Positions 1-12,944 are shown, counted from the stretch's first letter. The stretch: DNA of 64,000 nucleotides from Candidatus Adlerbacteria bacterium (GCA_963749085.1 CAVVLG010000002.1:370085-434084); one strand, 5' to 3'. The notes: generated by a model not told the origin, from the letters alone. Translations and numbers: made by a program.

Positions 1-1841
1 GGATTGTAGGAGACGACACTGGCTCCCGACAGAGAGGTAGAGCCGAGGAGTCCCAAGGAAGTGGTTGAGACACTAAGTGCGCCGCTCAGATCGGTGAGTC
101 CCGTGCCAAGAAGCGAGGTGAAGTAATTGCCGCTTAAGGAGAAGGTCGAGGTGACGAGATTGGTGGTGGTGGCGTTGGTGGTGGTTGAGTTTTGAGCAGT
201 GAAGTTCTGGAGGGTCGTTGAGCCAGTGGTGAGGAGTGTCGAGAGAGTGGAGAGGCCGGAGACTGCCAAGGTACCGGTTGCAGTGAGGTTGGTTGCGGTT
301 ACGTTACCGGTGAAGAAGCCCGAGCCGTTGACCGCGAAAGTGGCGAAGGGAGAGGTAGTGCCGATGCCGACCGCATTTTTGAAGTAGGCAGAGAGAGGAA
401 CAGAGCTGTTAACCTCCAGAGCAGCGAGAGAGGTGGTGGCCGTTGAGCCAATGAGAACTTGATTGGTGGTGGTGGCCAAGTACAGGCCGGAGTTGTTGAA
501 GAACACCCAATTGCCATCACTACCGCCTCCACCTCCGGTGCCGCAGATAACCGAACCTGAGGGATTGGTCTCCAGGGTGCAGTTGCCGAAGCCGCCTGCG
601 GTAAGAGACAGCGTACCGGCAAGTACGAAATTCTCCGCAGAGAGGGTTTTAGTTGAGGTGGCGAAGGAGAAGGAGGAGTCTGCGGCTAAGGTGGTCCCGT
701 TAGTGAATTGGACCAAGCCCGGCGTGCCAGTGGCAACCGCAGTACCGCTGCCACTCCCGATACATACCCCATTGATGCTAAAGCAGCCGCTCCCGAGATT
801 GATACCTGCTGCAAAACTTGATGTTGCAGTATTGGTGCTGGTGAAGGTGCCGGTGAAATCTCCACTGGCATTGTTGAAAGAGGAATTGTTGATGGTACTG
901 GCGGCGATGGTAACGTTGTTCAATTGACCGATGTTTTGTGCCAGCGCGATGTTGTTGGTGTAGCCGCCGGTTGCGGGAAGAGAATTGGGGGTGCTTTGAT
1001 TTTGATAGATGAGCGAAGTTAAGGAATTGGAGAGCGCGGTGAGTTGCTCAGTGAGATCAGCTTGAGTGATACCGACTGGAGGACTACTGCTTTCTACTAG
1101 GGTACGCTCGATGATGGGTTGAGTGATATTTTCGACTATGGTTGGGGTTTGATTTACAGTGGCAGTGGGACTTGAAGTCGATTCTGTTGACGAGGTGAGA
1201 GGTACCGAGGGCTGCGGCGAGGTAGGTTCAGATACTGCAACGTTAATTGAATTGTTGGAAGGGAAAAAATACGCAAATATATTCGAAAAGAAATTGGAGG
1301 TAAATGGATTTGATATCTGAGGTATTGCAAGCAGCGGTGGTTTCGTGACGAAGAACGGCGATTCGATCTGGGCCAAAGCTGCGGTAAGCGTTTGCGAATT
1401 ACTTATACTCTGGGCAGGTATACCAAAAAATCGATTTCCAGTGGGAGACGCGACCGTGCCGGCAAAGACAACCGAGATTAGAAGAAACGTCGTACCAATC
1501 GCGAGGCCCAGAGGTCTGGTTATGGAAAAGGCAGATTTTGTTTTGCCTTTGGGGAGAGAACCCGGTAGACCGTTTAATTTTCGATAGAGTTCGTTCTCTT
1601 TCCGGCGCTCCCCAGCAAGATTCTCGGCACGAAGAGATTTGGATTCCCTGCGATCAGATTGAAATTTAATTATCGAAGCCTCCTGAACAAACCACGCATT
1701 ATCAATCCTTTGCCCTACCAGTTTGCCTTCTCGGCAGAGTTTACCGACATAGTCCGGAGCACAGTTGAGAAGCTTTGCTGCAGCGCGGGCCGAAAGCATA
1801 GGTTCACCAGTATTTGCAAAAATTTTCTTAGGCAATGACAT
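1..1841 (-). CDS. Large membrane-anchored cell-surface repeat protein (partial; C-terminus beyond window start). N-terminal HTH-like domain, one TM helix, then long Thr/Ser/Gly/Asn-rich beta-repeat ectodomain with tail-fibre-like IGSTATTSLAALEV / VGIGTTSPFATFAV motifs.
   Basis: Manual translation of minus strand: open frame from ATG at 1841-1839 (MSLPKKIFANTGEPMLSARAAAKLLNCAPDYVGKLCREGKLVGQRIDNAWFV...) through TM segment GLAIGTTFLLISVVFAGTV and >400 aa of T/S/G/N-rich repeats to position 1 without a stop. The ORF track lists only short antisense ORFs here, presumably because the gene is edge-truncated. Confidence 0.6.
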   Translation of the reverse strand, partial: MSLPKKIFANTGEPMLSARAAAKLLNCAPDYVGKLCREGKLVGQRIDNAWFVQEASIIKFQSDRRESKSLRAENLAGERRKENELYRKLNGLPGSLPKGKTKSAFSITRPLGLAIGTTFLLISVVFAGTVASPTGNRFFGIPAQSISNSQTLTAALAQIESPFFVTKPPLLAIPQISNPFTSNFFSNIFAYFFPSNNSINVAVSEPTSPQPSVPLTSSTESTSSPTATVNQTPTIVENITQPIIERTLVESSSPPVGITQADLTEQLTALSNSLTSLIYQNQSTPNSLPATGGYTNNIALAQNIGQLNNVTIAASTINNSSFNNASGDFTGTFTSTNTATSSFAAGINLGSGCFSINGVCIGSGSGTAVATGTPGLVQFTNGTTLAADSSFSFATSTKTLSAENFVLAGTLSLTAGGFGNCTLETNPSGSVICGTGGGGGSDGNWVFFNNSGLYLATTTNQVLIGSTATTSLAALEVNSSVPLSAYFKNAVGIGTTSPFATFAVNGSGFFTGNVTATNLTATGTLAVSGLSTLSTLLTTGSTTLQNFTAQNSTTTNATTTNLVTSTFSLSGNYFTSLLGTGLTDLSGALSVSTTSLGLLGSTSLSGASVVSYN

Positions 1842-1966
1842 GAACGATAAAACTTTTGTTTACATAGAGAGTTCGGCTTTACCGCTTTTAAGTTTAACTG
1901 GACTTTCATACTATTTGATGTAAATAGAAGTAAATTCTGTGGACAGAATGCGCAGTACAAGGGCAA

Positions 1967-2505
1967 TTTTAACTTTATTTTGAGGGTTAAAATAACAAAA
2001 AAAAGAATATAAAAAATTAAAAATATATATTCAACAAAATCGGATTCTCGTAAAAAATTAAATAGAAAGTGGATATAAATTATAAGCTTTATATTATGGT
2101 TATATCGGCTGTGCCAGGCGATATCTCGTCTAAACTTTGACAGAATCTTGAATAAAAAACGCGCATAAAAATTTGTTACTAACCATAGTTAAATTTGATA
2201 TCATTGAGATCAATTTTTTCCTATTGTAACCTTATTGTTACGTACACACGCTTCTCTTTTACCGATTTTTAATTTGACTCACTCTTATTAATGAGTCCCT
2301 ATAATCAATTTGTTGCATCTGCTGCTTTGACACCAAATATATAATACCCGAGATATCCTTAAATTCGAGGCTTAATTTAAAAATCTCGGATACATTAGAC
2401 CAGTAGTATGAATCTGCGTATATCCTTATTTTTAATTTGGAACCTTCGGAAAATTCCTTAAAAACAGAATATTTGACGGATTAATACAATGATGCCGAAA
2501 CAGCA
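1967..2505. promoter_or_regulatory. Markedly AT-rich non-coding spacer between two minus-strand genes; probable promoter/5' leader region of the large surface-protein gene
   Basis: No ORF >60 aa; long A/T runs and many TATAAT/TTGACA-like hexamers; flanked by gene end at 2506 and gene start at 1841. Confidence 0.3.
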
Positions 2506-3222
2506 CTAAAATGAGTACCTAGCGCTTGCTGGCTGACTTCCCTCCACAGTCGTTACCGAACTCAACTTAGCGGAGAGAAGGGTAACTAACCCAAAGAATA
2601 TGCCGCCGATAACAAGTAAGGTTCCAATCCGTACCGCCATTATACGCCACTTAGCCGGCGAATAATGTTTTTTCTCTATAATGGTGATCGCCTCGGCATC
2701 CCTCTTCCACATAGGAGCAGTGGTTATGGGTACACGTTGTATGGGAGGGAAAAAGGGCGAAGTATCGACCACATAGCGTAAACCCCCATGGCTTTCGTTT
2801 CTTTGTTCAGAAACTTTATTTACCGCGATATGATGCATCTCAGGATCTTTTTCTATCTTTTCTGCAACCAATGCCGCGATTTCCTTTTTTAGCTCTTCAA
2901 CTTTTATTTCAACGCTCTGCTCTTTTTCTTTTTCTTGAATTCTCGAAGCATGCGGTTCTACTACTTCTGGTAAGGATTCTTTGATAGCTGGCATTTTCAA
3001 TACATCCTTCGAGCCGTGTATATGGGGAGAAGCTTCTTTCCCGAGATATTCGGTGAGCGAGTCCTCATTTACATACCATGCCCTGCCGATTTTTTGACCT
3101 TCAACTTTACCAGCGCGTACCAACTGTCCAATATAGTCTGGGTGATATTTATGTGCTTTCCCAGCACGTCGAGACGATATGTACCGCTTGCCCGAGATTT
3201 CTAGCTCATCCATGCCCCCCAA
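2506..3222 (-). CDS. Membrane-tethered HTH protein: N-terminal excisionase/MerR-like HTH, E/K-rich coiled-coil linker, C-terminal TM helix
   Basis: 238-aa ORF; N-terminus YISSRRAGKAHKYHPDYIGQLVRAGKVEGQKIGRAWYVNEDSL is paralogous to the N-terminus of the 1..1841 gene; EKEKEQSVEIKVEELKKEIAALVAEKIEK linker; hydrophobic IMAVRIGTLLVIGGIFFGLVTLL near C-terminus. Confidence 0.5.
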   Translation of the reverse strand: MGGMDELEISGKRYISSRRAGKAHKYHPDYIGQLVRAGKVEGQKIGRAWYVNEDSLTEYLGKEASPHIHGSKDVLKMPAIKESLPEVVEPHASRIQEKEKEQSVEIKVEELKKEIAALVAEKIEKDPEMHHIAVNKVSEQRNESHGGLRYVVDTSPFFPPIQRVPITTAPMWKRDAEAITIIEKKHYSPAKWRIMAVRIGTLLVIGGIFFGLVTLLSAKLSSVTTVEGSQPASARYSF

Positions 3223-3228
3223 GTATAC

Positions 3229-4638
3229 CTAGGAGAGAATTTTTTGTATAGCTGACTGTAATGTCTGAGGATTAGCTGAGCCTCTGGTTTCTTTCATCCC
3301 CTGCCCCACCAGGAACTGGAGGGCCGCTTCTTTACCAGCCTTATAATCGGCGGCGACCTCTGGATGTGCATCAATCACCTTTTGCGCGACTGCCGCGAGT
3401 ATACCTTCATCGCTTTGTTGTATAAGATTTTTCGCGCGCGCGATCACTTCGGGTTCCTCCTCCGACACAATCATCACCTGCAACGTATCCTTCGCCCCAC
3501 GCGAAGAAAGGAGTCCTGTGGATACCAGGTCAATCAAGAGAGCAAATCTTTTGGCATTCTGTGCGGTAAGCCAGGACCGTGTCATCTCGGCCTTTTCTAT
3601 CTTGCCGGCTATGTCGCTTGCAAGGTAATTCGCCAGTAGCGAGGGCACCGTACTATCAGCAGGGGTTGAGAATGCAAGTGCGTTGTCGAAAAAATCTCCA
3701 AGCGCACTATCGCGGACGAACATTTCCACATCATCGGACTTAAGGCCGAGGTCAAGATATCTTTTCCGGCGTTGTCCAGGCAGCTCAGGAACTTGCAACC
3801 GGGTAAACCCTTTCACCTCAGAGACGAGGAGTTTCGGTACGTCTGGATCCGGAAAGTAACGGTAATCATGAGACGATTCTTTCTTGCGCTGTGAAAAGGT
3901 TTCTTCTTTCTGCTCGTCCCAACCGCGCGTTTCTTGCACAACGTCTATGCCCTGCTCCAGCAGTTTCTGCTGCCGCTCCAGTTCATAGGCGATAGCCCGC
4001 TCAAGCGAACGAAAGGAATTGAGATTTTTGACCTCTACCTTGGTACCGAGCATGTCATCGTTGCTCACAGATATATTCGCTTCGACGCGCATTTCACCTT
4101 TCTCCATATTGGCCTCCCCCACCCCGAGATACCGCAGGAGCAATTGCAACTCCCGGGCAAAGGCACCGGCCGCTTCTGTGTCGTGTATCACCGGCTCGGT
4201 GACCAATTCCATCAAGGGTACCCCCGCACGATTGTAATCGACCAAACTTCTCTCCCCTTCATGCTGGGAGCGTGCGGTGTCTTCTTCCAGATGTATACGC
4301 GTCAGCGCAACACCGCGCAGCGACCCACCGACTACTAGTGGATATTGATACTGGCTTATTTGGTAGCCTTTGGGTATATCGGGATAGAAATAATTTTTTC
4401 TATCAAACTCGCTGAAATCAGCAGGCACACTGCCGAGTGCCTCGCCCACGAGTAAGACCTTGTGCACTGCTTCCTTATTTATGACCGGCAGAGTCCCCGG
4501 ATGGGCCGTGCATACCGGACAAATATTCGTATTGGCTTTCTTTTCGTTCGGATCATTGAGGCATGCGCAAAACATCTTGGTTCTGGTTTTGAGCTCCGCA
4601 TGAATCTCAAGGCCTATCGTGGCACGGTAGTCGCTCAT
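3229..4638 (-). CDS. gatB: Asp-tRNA(Asn)/Glu-tRNA(Gln) amidotransferase subunit B
   Basis: 469 aa; MSDYRATIGLEIHAELKTRTKMFCAC...CPVCTAHPGTLPV N-terminal GatB signature, full-length. Confidence 0.95.
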   Translation of the reverse strand: MSDYRATIGLEIHAELKTRTKMFCACLNDPNEKKANTNICPVCTAHPGTLPVINKEAVHKVLLVGEALGSVPADFSEFDRKNYFYPDIPKGYQISQYQYPLVVGGSLRGVALTRIHLEEDTARSQHEGERSLVDYNRAGVPLMELVTEPVIHDTEAAGAFARELQLLLRYLGVGEANMEKGEMRVEANISVSNDDMLGTKVEVKNLNSFRSLERAIAYELERQQKLLEQGIDVVQETRGWDEQKEETFSQRKKESSHDYRYFPDPDVPKLLVSEVKGFTRLQVPELPGQRRKRYLDLGLKSDDVEMFVRDSALGDFFDNALAFSTPADSTVPSLLANYLASDIAGKIEKAEMTRSWLTAQNAKRFALLIDLVSTGLLSSRGAKDTLQVMIVSEEEPEVIARAKNLIQQSDEGILAAVAQKVIDAHPEVAADYKAGKEAALQFLVGQGMKETRGSANPQTLQSAIQKILS

Positions 4639-8879: not shown

Positions 8880-11399
8880 TCAATGTTTGAGTGCTTGAAG
8901 GCTCTGCCCCTGCTGACCTTTTTTACTCATATTTGCTTGATGTTCAGGTGTATTCAAGGCGCCACAACGCTTCCATTTTTTACCGGAACCGCAGGGACAG
9001 GGGTCGTTACGTCCTATTTCGCGCTGACCTCCTTTCGCATCGGGAACCTGCAGCGTGATGACCGGCGTTTGCTGATGTGAGGCTATCGGTGCGTTGGAGA
9101 TTTTCTCCTTAGTGAGGCCTCCAATAAGCTCAAACACCCGCGCTACGAGCAGCATCTCCATCTCTTTGTAGATCCGGGTGCCTTCTTTGCGGTACTCCAC
9201 GAGAGGATCTCGCTGGCCGTAGGCGCGCAGATTAACCGAACCGCGCAAATATTCCATGGACTCCAAATGCTCCACCCACAGCAAGTCGAGTGTTTGAAGT
9301 ACGATGGTACGTGTGACGGCGAGCAACTGTTCCTGCCCGAGTTCTTCTTCTTTTTTGGTGATGAGCTCGCGCGCTTCTTCATTCTCTCCCGCCAAATCAG
9401 CGAGCACCGCCGCCACATCCTCGGGCGTGCCGGTGAGTATGGTATTGCGACGCGCATAAATGGCGCGTCGCTGCTTGTCTAACACGTTATCGTATTCGAG
9501 CACATGCTTGCGCGCGTCGAAATTAAAACCCTCTATTTTCGTCTGCGCGTTTTCAAGGGCGCGCGTGACCATCGAATTTTCAATGGGTTCGTCCTCCGGG
9601 ATGCCGAACCGGCCCATCAGATTCTTGATGGTGTCGGAGGCGAACACCCGCATCAGATTATCTTCAAGCGACACGAAGAAGCGTGTCTCCCCCGCATCTC
9701 CCTGGCGGCCCGAGCGGCCGCGCAGCTGGTTGTCGATGCGCCGCGCCTCGTGGCGCTCGGTGCCGAGCACGTAGAGTCCGCCGAGCGATTTTACTTCTTC
9801 GTATTGTTCAGGAGAGGCCATGGCGCCCCCGAGCTTGATATCAACCCCGCGGCCAGCCATATTGGTCGCGACGGTGACTTTCCCCTTGTGCCCCGCCGAG
9901 GCGACAATTTCGCCCTCACGTTCGTGGTTTTTAGCATTAAGGATCTCGTGTGGAACGCCCTCGCGTTTTAAATACGCGGAGAGCAGTTCATTTTTCTCGA
10001 TGGAGACCGTGCCGATGAGCACCGGCTGTCCTTTGTCGTGCAAGGCTTTGACCGTGCGGGCGATAGCGGCGAACTTGCCGTTCTCGGTTTGAAAGATAAG
10101 GTCGTTGTCGTCCTTGCGGGTGACCTCCCGGTTGGTCGGTATATCGACCACCTCAAGCCCGTAGACCTTGTAGAACTCCTCGGCGGAGGTTTTTGCGGTG
10201 CCGGTCATGCCGGAGAGCTTGTCGTAGAGCCTGAAATAATTCTGATAGGTTATCGAGGCGAATGTGCGCGATTCCTTTTGCACCGCGACTCCCTCCTTGG
10301 CTTCAATAGCCTGATGGAGTCCCTCACTCCAGCGGCGCCCGGGCTGGAGGCGCCCTGTAAATTCATCGACAATGATGACTTCCCCGCCTTTGACCACATA
10401 CTCCTTGTCGCGACGAAAGAGCGCTTTGGCGCGCACCGCGGTCTCCAGGTGGTGAACATATTTTATTCCTTTTTCGGTATAGATATTGTCGATGCCAAGC
10501 AACGTCTCGGCATGTTCGATACCTTGGTCGGTCAGCTGTATCGCTTTCAGCTTTTCATCGACGGTAAAATCCTCTTCAGGTTTGAGCTGCGAGGCGATGC
10601 GCGCGAAGGTACGATAGAGATCTTCGGACTCCTGTGTGGGCGCGGAGATGATAAGCGGGGTACGGGCCTCATCGATGAGGATAGAGTCTATCTCGTCGAC
10701 GATGGCGTAGGCGTGTCCCCGTTGGCGCAGGTCCTCCGGCTTATAGGAAATGTTGTCGCGCAGGTAATCGAAGCCAAATTCCGAGTTGGTGCCGTAGGTG
10801 ATGTCGGCCTCGTACGCTTCTCGCCTCGTTGAGGGCCGCAAAAATTCGTAAAAAATCCTGAAGCTCCCTTCTTCGTCGCGCATGGCGTCCACCTCCTTGT
10901 GCCCTGGGTCGTAACGGTACGACTCGTTGCCGTTGATGACGCCGACCGAGAGACCGAGGGCGGCATATACCTGTCCCATCCATACCGCGTCGCGGCGCGC
11001 AAGATAATCGTTAACCGTGACCACATGCACGCCTCTATTGGTAAGCGCGTTGAGGTAGGCCGGCAGCGTGGCGACGAGTGTTTTGCCCTCGCCGGTCTTC
11101 ATCTCCGCGATGCCGCGGTTGTGGAGCACGTAGCCGCCGATAAGCTGCACGTCAAAAGGCCGAAGCTTCACCGTGCGGGCGGCAACCTCCCGCACCGCCG
11201 CGAACGCCTCAGGGAGTATATCCTCAAGGGTATCGCCCGCGGACAGGCGGTTGCGAAAGTGGTGGGTTTTCTCCCTGAGCGCTTCATCGCTGAGACGGCG
11301 ATATTCCTCCTCAAGCGTATTCACTGCCTCAACCACGGGCGCTGCGGCCTTCAACATAGCAGAGGAGGGGTCCCCGAAGAGGCTTTTGAACGAAAACAT
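8880..11399 (-). CDS. secA: Preprotein translocase ATPase SecA
   Basis: ORF 8880..11459 (859 aa); canonical N-terminus MFSFKSLFGDPSSAMLK begins at ATG 11399; DEAD motor, C-terminal Zn finger CPCGSGKKWKRC. Confidence 0.95.
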   Translation of the reverse strand: MFSFKSLFGDPSSAMLKAAAPVVEAVNTLEEEYRRLSDEALREKTHHFRNRLSAGDTLEDILPEAFAAVREVAARTVKLRPFDVQLIGGYVLHNRGIAEMKTGEGKTLVATLPAYLNALTNRGVHVVTVNDYLARRDAVWMGQVYAALGLSVGVINGNESYRYDPGHKEVDAMRDEEGSFRIFYEFLRPSTRREAYEADITYGTNSEFGFDYLRDNISYKPEDLRQRGHAYAIVDEIDSILIDEARTPLIISAPTQESEDLYRTFARIASQLKPEEDFTVDEKLKAIQLTDQGIEHAETLLGIDNIYTEKGIKYVHHLETAVRAKALFRRDKEYVVKGGEVIIVDEFTGRLQPGRRWSEGLHQAIEAKEGVAVQKESRTFASITYQNYFRLYDKLSGMTGTAKTSAEEFYKVYGLEVVDIPTNREVTRKDDNDLIFQTENGKFAAIARTVKALHDKGQPVLIGTVSIEKNELLSAYLKREGVPHEILNAKNHEREGEIVASAGHKGKVTVATNMAGRGVDIKLGGAMASPEQYEEVKSLGGLYVLGTERHEARRIDNQLRGRSGRQGDAGETRFFVSLEDNLMRVFASDTIKNLMGRFGIPEDEPIENSMVTRALENAQTKIEGFNFDARKHVLEYDNVLDKQRRAIYARRNTILTGTPEDVAAVLADLAGENEEARELITKKEEELGQEQLLAVTRTIVLQTLDLLWVEHLESMEYLRGSVNLRAYGQRDPLVEYRKEGTRIYKEMEMLLVARVFELIGGLTKEKISNAPIASHQQTPVITLQVPDAKGGQREIGRNDPCPCGSGKKWKRCGALNTPEHQANMSKKGQQGQSLQALKH

Positions 11400-11720
11400 G
11401 GTGAGCGCAGAATACCATACCAAAGCGTTATCGTATAGAAAAATCCCCCTGGAGTTCACACCCAGCGGGATTTTTCTTTCGAGAGGATCGCTTCGAGAAA
11501 AAGCTCGAAGCGATGACGCGGTTAGCGTCTCTTCTTCTTTGCTGCTTTCTTTTTCTTTGCCATAATGTTAGCGACTGAAGTCGCAATTGGACTGTGCATC
11601 GTTCGACCGTACTCCTCGCGCGCCCTAGGACGACACGCAAGCACATCTCGATGCCCTATCTACAAGTATCGGATACCAGTTCTGCAATTACAATGAACAT
11701 TCGAGCGCCACTGTGGATAA

Positions 11721-12740
11721 CTAAACAATTCTCACTTCGGGTTCTATGTCGATTCCTATTTTCTCTCGTACTTCCCTTTGTACTCTCTGGGCAAGCTCGC
11801 GCACGTCGCTTGCCGTGCAATTTTTTTGCGCAACAATGACCAAAAATTGTTTTTCGTACATTCTCGCGCCTCCGACCTTGAACGCTCGCGCGTCCATGAC
11901 GCCATGGCGATAATCAAGGAGCCACCCGAGCGGAATTTTTATGTCCGACGACTCAGGCAAGGTGAATATCGGCATCGTAGGAAAGCGCGTCTGGAGCGTA
12001 CGGGCCGCCGCCCTAGGCATAACCGGGTTTTTAAAGAAGGAACCGGCCGTGCCTTCAAGGGCAAGGTCGGGAAATTTATTCGTACGAATGACGAGAACGG
12101 CTTCGCGTATGGCATTGAGATCCAAAGAAGAGTCGCTGAAGAACTCCTTGAGGTCTCGGTACGAGAGATTGGGTTTTGGGGCACGAGAAAGGCTGAGGGC
12201 AGCGCGCAACACGATGTGCCTCCCGCCATCATGCTTGAAAAAACTGTCGCGATACCCCAGTGCACACGCGTGTGCCGATAGTTTTTTAATTTCACCATCC
12301 TCCGAATCCAACACTTCCACCCACGAAAGCACGTCGGAGAGGGCCGCGCCATACGCGCCGATGTTTTGCACCACGGCACCACCAACCGAACCCGGTATGC
12401 CTGAGAGATTTTCGATGCCCCAGAGATTTTCCGCAATGGCACGCTCAGCAACGGTGTCCCACTGCTCGCCTGCTCCGGCGATAAGAGCTGCCGACGTATC
12501 GCTTGCTTCAATCGTAATCCCTTTCAATTCAATTTTAATGACCAGACCTTCGAAGTCTTCGTCCGGCAAGAGTACATTAGAGCCTCCACCGAGCACCAAT
12601 ACCTTTACATCATTCGTACGCACAAACTCGAACGCTTTTTTTAAAGCGAGGAGCGTATTCGCACGGACAAAAAAACGCGCCGATCCACCGATATGAAACG
12701 TCGTCAACGGGGCGAGCGGCACCTGTTCCTGCATCTCCAT
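11721..12740 (-). CDS. murB: UDP-N-acetylenolpyruvoylglucosamine reductase MurB
   Basis: ORF 11721..12794; LAPLTTFHIGGSARFFV FAD-binding N-terminus, GGGSNVLL; likely start at internal Met (MEMQEQ) ~12740. Confidence 0.85.
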   Translation of the reverse strand: MEMQEQVPLAPLTTFHIGGSARFFVRANTLLALKKAFEFVRTNDVKVLVLGGGSNVLLPDEDFEGLVIKIELKGITIEASDTSAALIAGAGEQWDTVAERAIAENLWGIENLSGIPGSVGGAVVQNIGAYGAALSDVLSWVEVLDSEDGEIKKLSAHACALGYRDSFFKHDGGRHIVLRAALSLSRAPKPNLSYRDLKEFFSDSSLDLNAIREAVLVIRTNKFPDLALEGTAGSFFKNPVMPRAAARTLQTRFPTMPIFTLPESSDIKIPLGWLLDYRHGVMDARAFKVGGARMYEKQFLVIVAQKNCTASDVRELAQRVQREVREKIGIDIEPEVRIV

Positions 12741-12944
12741 TTTTCTATTGTACTCACGTTGTGCCCCGAACGGGAAGCGGATGCGAAGCTCCAAAACATT
12801 GTCCTAATGTGAGTGCACCGCTCCCCGCTCGAAGCGCACCACGCCAGTATACCGCACACACAAAGTCTCCTCTTGCGAGGAGACTTTGTACGGACAATGT
12901 CAGCGGAACTTACGCCCTGCTCACATGCCTTTCAGTATATCACC

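Follow-up and report, generated by a model that had tools for sequence, protein, structure and literature searches.

Two adjacent minus-strand genes, gene 1 (1..1841) and gene 2 (2506..3213), lie at the start of a 64,000-nucleotide stretch of DNA from a Candidatus Adlerbacteria bacterium (GCA_963749085.1 CAVVLG010000002.1:370085-434084; the whole stretch is referred to here as the window). Their sequences predict a pair of paralogous, membrane-tethered proteins of DNA-binding type. From the predictions, each protein positions a Xis/BldC-type domain, paralogous to that of the other, against the cytoplasmic side of the membrane, and in one of the two the same chain carries on outside as a giant surface fibre. 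Beyond what a preliminary description of the sequence had proposed, the pair is a conserved cassette, and its shared module falls within a very large superfamily. We tentatively favour a model, still short of probable, in which the two proteins act on an operator in their own intergenic gap, with a topology like that of ToxR and without homology to it. A role in DNA binding in general seems likelier than this specific operator assignment.

The case for paralogy starts at the N-termini. In a BLASTP comparison, residues 11-60 of gene 1 align with residues 10-59 of gene 2, with 21 of 50 positions identical (42%, E=3e-12), which bears out the shared N-terminal helix-turn-helix (HTH) segment proposed in the preliminary description. 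This likeness is far beyond chance, because a hidden Markov model (HMM) of the gene 1 N-terminus matches every gene 2 homologue, at 35-61 bits. Both N-termini can be confidently modelled as Xis/BldC/MerR-like winged HTH domains (strand-helix-turn-helix-β-wing). The winged HTH of gene 1 (approximately aa 14-53) continues into a long helix (aa 54-89), and AlphaFold 2 (AF2) modelled aa 10-90 with a predicted local distance difference test (pLDDT) score above 90 from a shallow alignment. One face of this helix carries F60, R64, R71, L75, R79 and E82, all of them invariant in 33 gene 1 orthologues. The model for aa 1-60 of gene 2 is arranged as hairpin-helix-helix-wing-helix, with pLDDT values of 89-95 for aa 11-60 and 80 for aa 1-10.

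Structural comparison of both models using Foldseek returned the mycobacteriophage Pukovnik Xis and BldC as best matches (target-normalised TM-scores of 0.67-0.77, root-mean-square deviation (rmsd) 1.4-2.5 Å, 46-54 columns), in line with the excisionase/MerR-like character first suggested for the segment. Pukovnik Xis (4j2n) superimposed with an rmsd of 1.4-1.7 Å over 46-47 columns and a target-normalised TM-score of 0.68-0.75; on the same scale the BldC-DNA complexes (6ama/6amk) scored 0.63-0.77 and RacA bound to DNA (5i44) 0.54-0.58, the latter with a Foldseek probability of 0.66-0.95. The matches next after Xis and BldC were Rv2175c, TraN, RacA-DNA, the RdfS excisionase, pSK1 Par with its centromere DNA (8csh), GlnR and CadR. 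All of the closest low-rmsd matches are DNA-binding domains of MerR/Xis type, with Foldseek probabilities of 0.9-1.0. HTH_17 (PF12728, TIGR01764) is the only DNA-binding-domain family found by Pfam scans of both proteins and of the full-length gene 1 protein (P0176, below), and exceeds its gathering score in relatives (31.3 bits in orthologue L026, 34-57.5 bits in others). Weak PHROG matches carry the labels 'excisionase' and 'DNA binding protein'; that of gene 2 to phrog_1840 ('excisionase') scores 25 bits. A sequence search of the PDB with the gene 2 profile gave nothing relevant.

A single transmembrane (TM) helix follows the HTH module or modules in all 46 gene 1 and 54 gene 2 family members; where the N-terminal region is complete, no second helix was seen beyond two weak segments of doubtful status. 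The arrangement of HTH, linker and one TM helix that had been proposed for both proteins thus holds as regards the single helix; in gene 2, however, that helix is C-terminal, some 130 aa past the HTH. Lysine and arginine residues number 3.2-3.6 per 20 aa on the N-terminal side of the helix versus 0.9 on the C-terminal side in both families, and because of this positive-inside bias the topology is predicted to be N-in/C-out and the HTH cytoplasmic, as the earlier reading required. A basic spacer precedes the gene 1 helix, and the outer end of the helix has a conserved small-x-small 'VFA↓G' motif in the gene 1 orthologue alignment, with A127 nearly invariant.

Gene 1 is much larger than the part of it that lies in the window. 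On translation, the minus-strand frame from 1841 to 3 is open across 613 codons and leaves the window at its start, and these codons specify the N-terminal 613 residues (613/613 identical) of a database protein of 2,502 aa, P0176, confirming that the gene runs off the stretch. P0176 and P0034, the database counterpart of gene 2, are both encoded on a 518,058-bp contig. The preliminary description had noted that the open reading frame (ORF) track misses gene 1. It is indeed unlisted, and ORFs in other frames appear in its place, which reflects the lister's omission of ORFs that leave the stretch. The giant ectodomain that had been proposed is equally clear, with a protein of 2,502 aa here and relatives of up to 5,279 aa.

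Gene 2 is intact, its ORF spanning 2506..3222 on translation. We place its start at the ATG at 3213 and not at 3222, because the N-terminal sequence MDELEISGKRY is invariant in 27 homologues; this ATG lies 15 nt past the gatB stop codon. The linker beyond the HTH comprises ~130 acidic, variable and disordered residues, and includes a short linear motif with the pattern GL-x-Y-[IV]-x-D-x-x-P-[LF]-F-P that may be a docking peptide for a cytoplasmic partner. A resembling motif was also seen by eye in the linkers of two relatives with two HTH modules each (P0200 and P0170). AF2 predicts a helix over aa 188-216 (pLDDT 93-95) and strands at aa 219-223 and 227-231 in the extracytoplasmic tail, whose median length across the family is 24 aa. 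More than 255 gene 2 homologues were found, and every one of their sources belongs to the Patescibacteria/Paceibacteria.

The pairing of the two genes is strongly conserved. The gene 2 alignment was scanned against one genome per species (GTDB representatives), yielding 50 loci, which together with the studied stretch and three further contigs make 54 sources. The metagenome-assembled genomes (MAGs) concerned are labelled Adlerbacteria, Nomurabacteria, Parcubacteria, Paceibacterota and Minisyncoccia; these labels are taken from MAG record titles, and some are generic, e.g. 'uncultured Saccharibacteria' for binned MAGs. In 47 of the 54 sources, gene 2 is followed on its own strand, at a distance of 196-664 nt, by the start of a gene-1-type ORF, and six of the remaining seven have a contig end no more than 560 nt from gene 2. 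The order gene 2, AT-rich gap, gene 1, beside obg-gatB, thus recurs in 47 of 48 informative loci, and the co-occurrence in other Candidate Phyla Radiation (CPR) genomes that had been raised as a question is close to complete. The sole locus with a gene 2 homologue, 10 kb of downstream DNA and no gene-1-type ORF is L035:9935-20633. Upstream, the contigs examined share NUDIX, DsbD, holin-like, obg and gatB genes. Many contigs end in the gap or inside gene 1 (L001, L003, L004, L007, L009, L011, L013, L015, L016 and others). P0176 contains near-identical internal duplications of ~180 aa (e.g. aa ~621-800 versus ~1013-1200), and because such duplications break short-read assemblies, gene 1 appears to be systematically truncated or missing in MAGs.

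The gap itself is 196-664 nt long in all 47 paired loci, with a GC content of 0.28-0.44 versus 0.46-0.64 for the loci, and is the probable promoter and operator region of gene 1. It is marked by motif B, a palindrome-like 10-mer, CGA[GT]AT[AC]TCG (CGAGATATCG type), ~290-340 nt upstream of gene 1. Motif B occurs 39 times in 34 kb of gap DNA versus 13 times in 797 kb of other locus DNA, an enrichment of approximately 70-fold. When up to one mismatch is allowed, there are 47 sites (shuffle mean 1.8), and 36 of the 47 gaps contain at least one. Within the 64-kb window the exact 10-mer is confined to the gap. Seven of nine successive spacings measure 20-22 nt and the other two 11 nt, which places the sites on the same face of the DNA helix.

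Closer to gene 1 lies a second element, the DnaA-box-like motif A, found 100-116 nt (~107) upstream of the predicted gene 1 start in 30 of 47 loci and, at up to one mismatch, in 44 of the 47 gaps. Downstream of it are promoter-like elements (ATATATAGAG-like and TAcAAT-like), -10-like ones among them, and a conserved leader of ~36 nt with the pattern CCGAAC...AAACAAAAG...TCGG. Sigma-70 and terminator scans of positions 1700-3400 found sites no commoner than in shuffled sequence, and RNAalifold gave no consensus RNA structure for 23 leaders. Three other explanations of the gap were considered and rejected. A structured RNA finds no Rfam family at gathering score in the gap, the one weak, chance-level match being inside the gene 1 coding sequence. 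As to a hidden small gene, no ORF is conserved in more than five of the 47 loci. A replication origin was suggested by the AT-rich composition and the DnaA-box-like motif, but each gap has one box at a fixed distance from the gene 1 start, the window's own motif A is two positions off the DnaA-box consensus, and the flanking genes are co-directional. The coordinates of all these features are collected in Table 1.

Table 1. Features of the two-gene cassette and its intergenic gap, numbered from the first nucleotide of the window; domain assignments are predictions.
Feature	Position	Strand	Remarks
Gene 1, first 613 codons, single-pass membrane protein	1..1841	-	ATG at 1841; 46 further orthologous ORFs among the loci
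Gene 1 Thr/Ser/Gly/Asn-rich fibre repeats, first part, aa 362-613	3..758	-	~1,890 residues more beyond the window
Gene 1 stalk base, aa 217-361	759..1193	-	IERT motif, helical GITQADLTEQLTALSNSL segment, NSLPATGGYTNNIALAQNIGQL, CFSINGVCI
Gene 1 juxtamembrane extracytoplasmic motif AALAQIESPFF, aa 154-164	1350..1382	-	F164 invariant; S161 and F163 at least 90% conserved
Gene 1 single TM helix, aa 113-131, LAIGTTFLLISVVFAGTVA	1449..1505	-	Kyte-Doolittle 2.12; positive-inside flank
Gene 1 cytoplasmic module, aa 14-89	1575..1802	-	strand-helix-helix-wing, then one long helix (aa 54-89)
Leader GCCGAACTCTCTATGTAAACAAAAGTTTTATCGTTC	1842..1877	-	directly upstream of gene 1 ATG; CGAA, AAAG and TCG blocks conserved in 23 aligned leaders
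Non-coding AT-rich gap between gene 2 and gene 1	1842..2505	.	GC 0.30 versus 0.51 for the 64-kb window
Motif A, TGTCCACAG, DnaA-box-like, consensus TATCCACAG	1937..1945	-	104 nt upstream of gene 1 ATG
Motif B array, ACGAGATATCG then CGATAT	2102..2129	-	21 nt start-to-start
Inverted motif B half-sites	2348..2389	.	CCGAGAT 2383-2389 (minus); ATCTCGG 2348-2354; one-mismatch match 2348-2358
Gene 2, 235-aa tail-anchored HTH protein	2506..3213	-	identical to P0034; stop codon 2506-2508
Gene 2 extracytoplasmic tail, ~21 aa, TVEGSQPASARYSF-type β-hairpin	2509..2571	-	conserved TVExGKxASV pattern
Gene 2 C-terminal TM helix, aa 196-214	2572..2628	-	Kyte-Doolittle 2.25; positive-inside flank
Gene 2 short linear motif GLRYVVDTSPFFPPI, aa 143-158	2740..2787	-	L145, Y147, D150, P153 and P156 at least 90% conserved
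Gene 2 winged HTH, aa 1-60	3034..3213	-	24 invariant positions in the 27-homologue alignment

We are now able to propose a working model for the cassette. Gene 1 would be a type-II (N-in/C-out) single-pass protein consisting of an HTH with its Arg-striped helix, one TM helix and a surface fibre of ~2,400 aa. Gene 2 would be its tail-anchored partner, in which the same type of HTH is joined by a disordered acidic linker, with its docking motif, to a TM helix and an outer hairpin of ~21 aa. Both HTHs would bind DNA at the inner membrane face, the likeliest target being the phased, palindromic CGAGATATCG-type array in the gap between their own genes. Through this binding, transcription of the giant gene, driven by its own promoter, may depend on how much fibre there is, on its state of assembly or on whether it is engaged; this would be a ToxR/TcpP-like logic on a different DNA-binding fold. 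Membrane-tethered regulation of this kind would be workable because the nucleoid is always near the membrane in such tiny cells, and the near-invariance of the gene 2 HTH (24 of 60 positions) is as expected for recognition of a conserved target. S74 domains drive trimer folding in tail spikes; some gene 1 orthologues carry Peptidase_S74, and the fibre is therefore probably oligomeric.

Several points weigh against this model. HTH_17 scores 21.1 bits in gene 1 and 18.2 bits in gene 2, below the gathering score of 27, and for so short a domain the Foldseek E-values are no better than 0.03-0.7. Direct DNA binding is suggested by the modelled fold of the HTHs. AF2 yielded no confident model for the gene 1 ectodomain and TM region. 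Motif B is palindromic, unlike the direct repeats to which Xis and BldC bind head-to-tail. The sole ties between motif B and the HTHs are adjacency and co-conservation, and 11 of the 47 gaps contain no motif B within one mismatch. A clade comprising L045, L047 and L049 combines everted half-sites with distinct HTH residues, a crude comparison that is confounded by phylogeny. Motif A recurs between murB and secA and is hence not specific to this locus. Finally, the argument for a trimer relies on S74, a domain without a match in P0176.

The same structural neighbours also lend themselves to a structural tether, in which the HTHs would fasten the nucleoid, or one specific chromosomal site, to the membrane and, via gene 1, to the fibre, with a role in chromosome organisation or segregation where few such systems are present in the cell. 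In RacA, the chromosome anchor of Bacillus, and in pSK1 Par, both among the structural matches, a winged HTH of MerR type leads into a long linker or coiled coil through which DNA is fastened at a membrane-associated site, and the cassette proteins could work alike; gene 2 in particular follows this RacA-like logic of HTH, long linker and membrane attachment. In addition, the cassette is near-universal in its clade and sits among housekeeping genes, the phased arrays recall centromere-like sites, and the tandem HTHs of some orthologues would raise avidity. RacA itself attaches indirectly, through DivIVA, lacks a TM helix and an ectodomain, and has sites spread around the origin region. Against the tether, motif B turned up at a single location in the DNA sampled, directly upstream of the gene 1 promoter region, a position that suits an operator better than a segregation site. 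An ectodomain of ~2,400 aa is moreover of no evident use to an anchor, and we consider the tether unlikely, if worth keeping in view. Less plausible still is that the HTH is a protein-protein module docking the fibre and its partner to the cytoskeleton, the divisome or a secretion/assembly machinery, with gene 2 as adaptor. The precedent is RodZ, a membrane-tethered HTH protein that binds a protein (MreB) and shares with the cassette proteins a cytoplasmic HTH at the N-terminus, a basic stretch beside the membrane, a single TM helix and a domain on the outer side. The invariant MDELEISGKRY hairpin of gene 2 and the linear motif in its disordered linker are of a kind that often marks docking, and motif A is found again upstream of secA. 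Against this, the HTH of RodZ is of Xre type and its periplasmic domain small, Pfam and NCBIfam scans found no RodZ-type family, and no partner was identified. Every close structural neighbour binds DNA, and the wing motif G-R-x-W and the HTH_17 pattern are retained. Taken together, these points make docking a distinctly poor prospect.

A further reading concerns gene 1 only: its HTH-TM region could be a cleavable leader, cut by signal peptidase I after (V/A)-x-A; the fibre would be set free, and each molecule exported would leave one HTH stub in the membrane, so that the stubs would count exports. The near-invariant A127 and the sequences 'VFA↓G / AFA↓S' fit the -3/-1 rule, a basic n-region and a short hydrophobic core precede the cut pattern, and homologous fibre proteins elsewhere have signal-peptide-like hydrophobic N-termini at the same position. 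This is a pattern alone, however, and small residues are common at the ends of TM helices; a folded pre-domain of ~110 aa ahead of a signal peptide would be unusual, and no other anchor was found for a released fibre. We give this proposal little credence. The last alternative, a prophage or mobile-element remnant in which an excisionase gene lies beside a tail-fibre gene, would account for the excisionase-type HTH, for Peptidase_S74 in two orthologues and for the 'tail fiber domain-containing' names that NCBI gives to distant relatives. It is effectively refuted by the data. The obg-gatB position is repeated in 47 species-level genomes and both proteins are membrane-anchored. Neither family has a match in 2.9 million viral contigs, and tblastn of P0176 against 50,697 phage records found none. 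The studied gene 1 protein matches no PHROG family, with orthologue L026 matching only a PHROG of unknown function over its S74 region, and no integrase or other phage gene is among the neighbours listed for L001-L003. A PADLOC defence scan gave merely a 19.5-bit match to a small HTH. Given its recurrent position and the lack of phage or viral matches, the cassette is best described as vertically inherited and chromosomal.

Returning to the favoured model of a membrane-tethered pair acting on its own operator, the closest functional parallels are ToxR, TcpP and CadC. In these proteins, too, a DNA-binding domain at the N-terminus, in the cytoplasm, is joined by a single TM helix to a C-terminal domain outside the membrane, and no phosphorelay takes part, the arrangement that is predicted here. 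ToxR and TcpP cooperate at one promoter, and the cassette similarly pairs two membrane-bound putative DNA binders. The resemblance ends there. ToxR, TcpP and CadC use an OmpR/PhoB-type winged helix (Pfam Trans_reg_C), unlike the HTH_17/Xis/MerR-like domain of the cassette, and no homology to them was detected. Their periplasmic parts are sensor folds of ~100-250 aa, compared with ~21 aa in gene 2 and a ~2,400-aa fibre in gene 1. Since it lacks an OmpR-type DNA-binding domain, the cassette is an analogue and not a member of the ToxR/CadC group, and the 'ToxR/CadC-style' arrangement first proposed survives for topology and not for the DNA-binding domain. Gene 2 is also not a sensor of this type, because it has almost no ectodomain.

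Other known systems share individual parts of the cassette. BldC, Pukovnik Xis and RdfS have the HTH_17 sequence pattern and a minimal MerR-like fold, and act on closely spaced arrays of sites. BldC and the excisionases are, however, soluble proteins of 50-80 aa, whereas here a TM anchor is fused to the domain, the candidate sites are palindromic and a long helix extends past the gene 1 wing. RsgI-type anti-sigma factors of cellulolytic clostridia are, like gene 1, single-pass proteins in which an extracellular binding module is coupled to transcription by a cytoplasmic N-terminus; what their cytoplasmic domain binds is a sigma factor, which it sequesters, and not DNA, and their domains are unrelated to those of the cassette. 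Overall, the cassette appears from its sequence to resemble known membrane-bound one-component DNA binders, with an unusual fusion to a giant fibre and an unexpectedly large family.

The ectodomain of gene 1 has relatives of its own. The stalk base is 34% identical over 179 columns (E=9e-13) to aa 104-274 of P0017 from Roseiarcus, named 'tail fiber domain-containing protein' by NCBI, which carries PF16403 and PF13884. It can also be recognised by its NSLPATGGYTNNIALAQ and CFSINGVCI motifs and by an AF2-predicted helix at aa 260-281. The bacterial proteins that share it have a hydrophobic, signal-peptide-like N-terminus. The first part of the fibre that follows (aa 362-613) is rich in Thr (16.5%), Ser (14.9%), Gly (9.6%) and Asn (9.2%), and its units reappear in P0176 at aa 1476-1610 and 1991-2085. 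Beyond the window, P0176 has LVIVD repeats (PF08309; 174.9 bits versus a gathering score of 20.2) in seven stretches between aa ~1650 and ~1930, which are a predicted β-propeller. Complete gene 1 orthologues range from 764 to 3,103 aa and many are still open beyond more than 3,000 aa; relatives among the matches listed by the profile search measure 3,277-5,279 aa. Peptidase_S74 (PF13884) and a bacterial immunoglobulin (Ig)-like domain are found at the end of orthologues L026 (46.9 bits) and L043 (58.3 bits). Peptidase_S74 has no match in P0176, whose C-terminus is uncertain, or in orthologues L025 and L030. The 'phage tail-fibre-like' label given to the ectodomain is therefore supported indirectly, by the S74 and Ig-like domains of two orthologues and by the stalk base, and not by P0176 itself, which has neither S74 nor a match in the phage records searched. 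Like tail-spike and tail-fibre proteins and the bacterial proteins with PF16403 and PF13884, gene 1 would have an N-terminal anchor and a C-terminal distal tip, and its stalk base is homologous to the N-terminal region of the bacterial ones. Proteins of this type begin with a signal-peptide-like N-terminus or a virion attachment domain, whereas gene 1 begins with an HTH and a TM helix. Its ectodomain belongs to a family of surface fibres, found in bacteria, which have components in common with the tail spikes of phages.

His, Arg, Cys and Pro are abundant in the final residues of P0176 (aa ~2410-2502), which differ in this from the remainder. This segment of ~90 aa looks like out-of-frame read-through, making the true C-terminus uncertain; the gene itself probably has a different end and could extend further. 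Variation also occurs at the other end of the protein. Five gene 1 orthologues (L005, L020, L022, L026 and L027) carry two tandem copies of the HTH and basic helix before the TM helix. At L037:10818-20189, a hydrophobic segment at the N-terminus and a duplicated region of ~180 aa precede the HTH (aa 494-571); the gap of this locus is just 196 nt long and without motif B, and it may be a rearranged variant or an assembly artefact. A homologue search with aa 1-340 of gene 1 returned six proteins. One relative, P0001 (937 aa, 58% identical to gene 1), is encoded at L002 (ENA contig_123812), where obg and gatB are broken into several short ORFs, indicating frequent frameshifts in the assembly; P0001 is for this reason probably a truncated fragment of a longer gene.

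The HTH module extends well beyond the cassette. Searching 1.84 billion representative proteins with a profile built from two sequences of the module gave 6,201 clusters (50% identity) at E<=1e-3 and 1,941 at E<=1e-10, a census that carries no taxonomy. Among 147 of the 150 best matches, approximately 125 have between one and three HTH modules followed by a single TM helix; those lacking a TM helix are mostly shorter than 260 aa and are probably fragments. The typical protein among these best 150 has 300-350 aa, with two HTH modules, a linker of ~100-150 aa, exactly one TM helix and little ectodomain; in P0164 there are three HTH modules. By these criteria, the module identifies a large superfamily of HTH proteins tethered to the membrane, as yet unnamed, in which nearly all full-length top matches are single-pass. 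Gene 2 is the one-HTH, tail-anchored form of this superfamily and gene 1 its giant-fibre form. Source records name the homologues 'hypothetical', 'helix-turn-helix domain-containing' or 'excisionase family DNA binding protein', and neither an NCBIfam model nor a curated family name exists for these HTH-TM proteins, in keeping with the initial impression that this is not a described family. The libraries searched contained no published description of membrane-tethered HTH_17 proteins or of the cassette.

CPR/Patescibacteria are mostly uncultured, are thought to be host-attached and have few recognisable regulators. A giant fibre and a DNA-binding fold in one polypeptide, together with a paralogous partner and an operator-like array, provide a testable candidate for coupling surface contact to gene expression or chromosome organisation in these cells. 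Thousands of single-pass proteins that lack annotation bear the same module, so that biochemical work on one of them would annotate a large part of the CPR 'dark matter'. A bolder proposal, which we regard as doubtful, is that HTH-TM proteins form a direct physical and signalling link from the outside world to the chromosome, without a second messenger. The fibre protein and its tail-anchored paralogue would in that case bind DNA at the membrane, and the fibre would be an adhesin or host-contact organelle whose assembly or engagement is read at a promoter or chromosomal anchor site. If this were true, the superfamily would be the main signal-transduction or nucleoid-anchoring device of Paceibacteria, enabled by their tiny cell size.

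A final set of observations comes from elsewhere in the window. Motif A is present a second time, as TTATCCACAG, at ~11710-11718 (minus strand) between murB (11721..12794) and secA (8880..11459), directly past the murB stop codon and upstream of secA; a corresponding distance upstream is seen in ~20 other loci. This second copy may mean that secA and the giant exported protein are regulated together, or it may be a general site for DnaA or another regulator. The same intergenic region contains a 13-codon ORF encoding MAKKKKAAKKKRR (11522-11563, minus strand), which could be a leader peptide or a chance occurrence.

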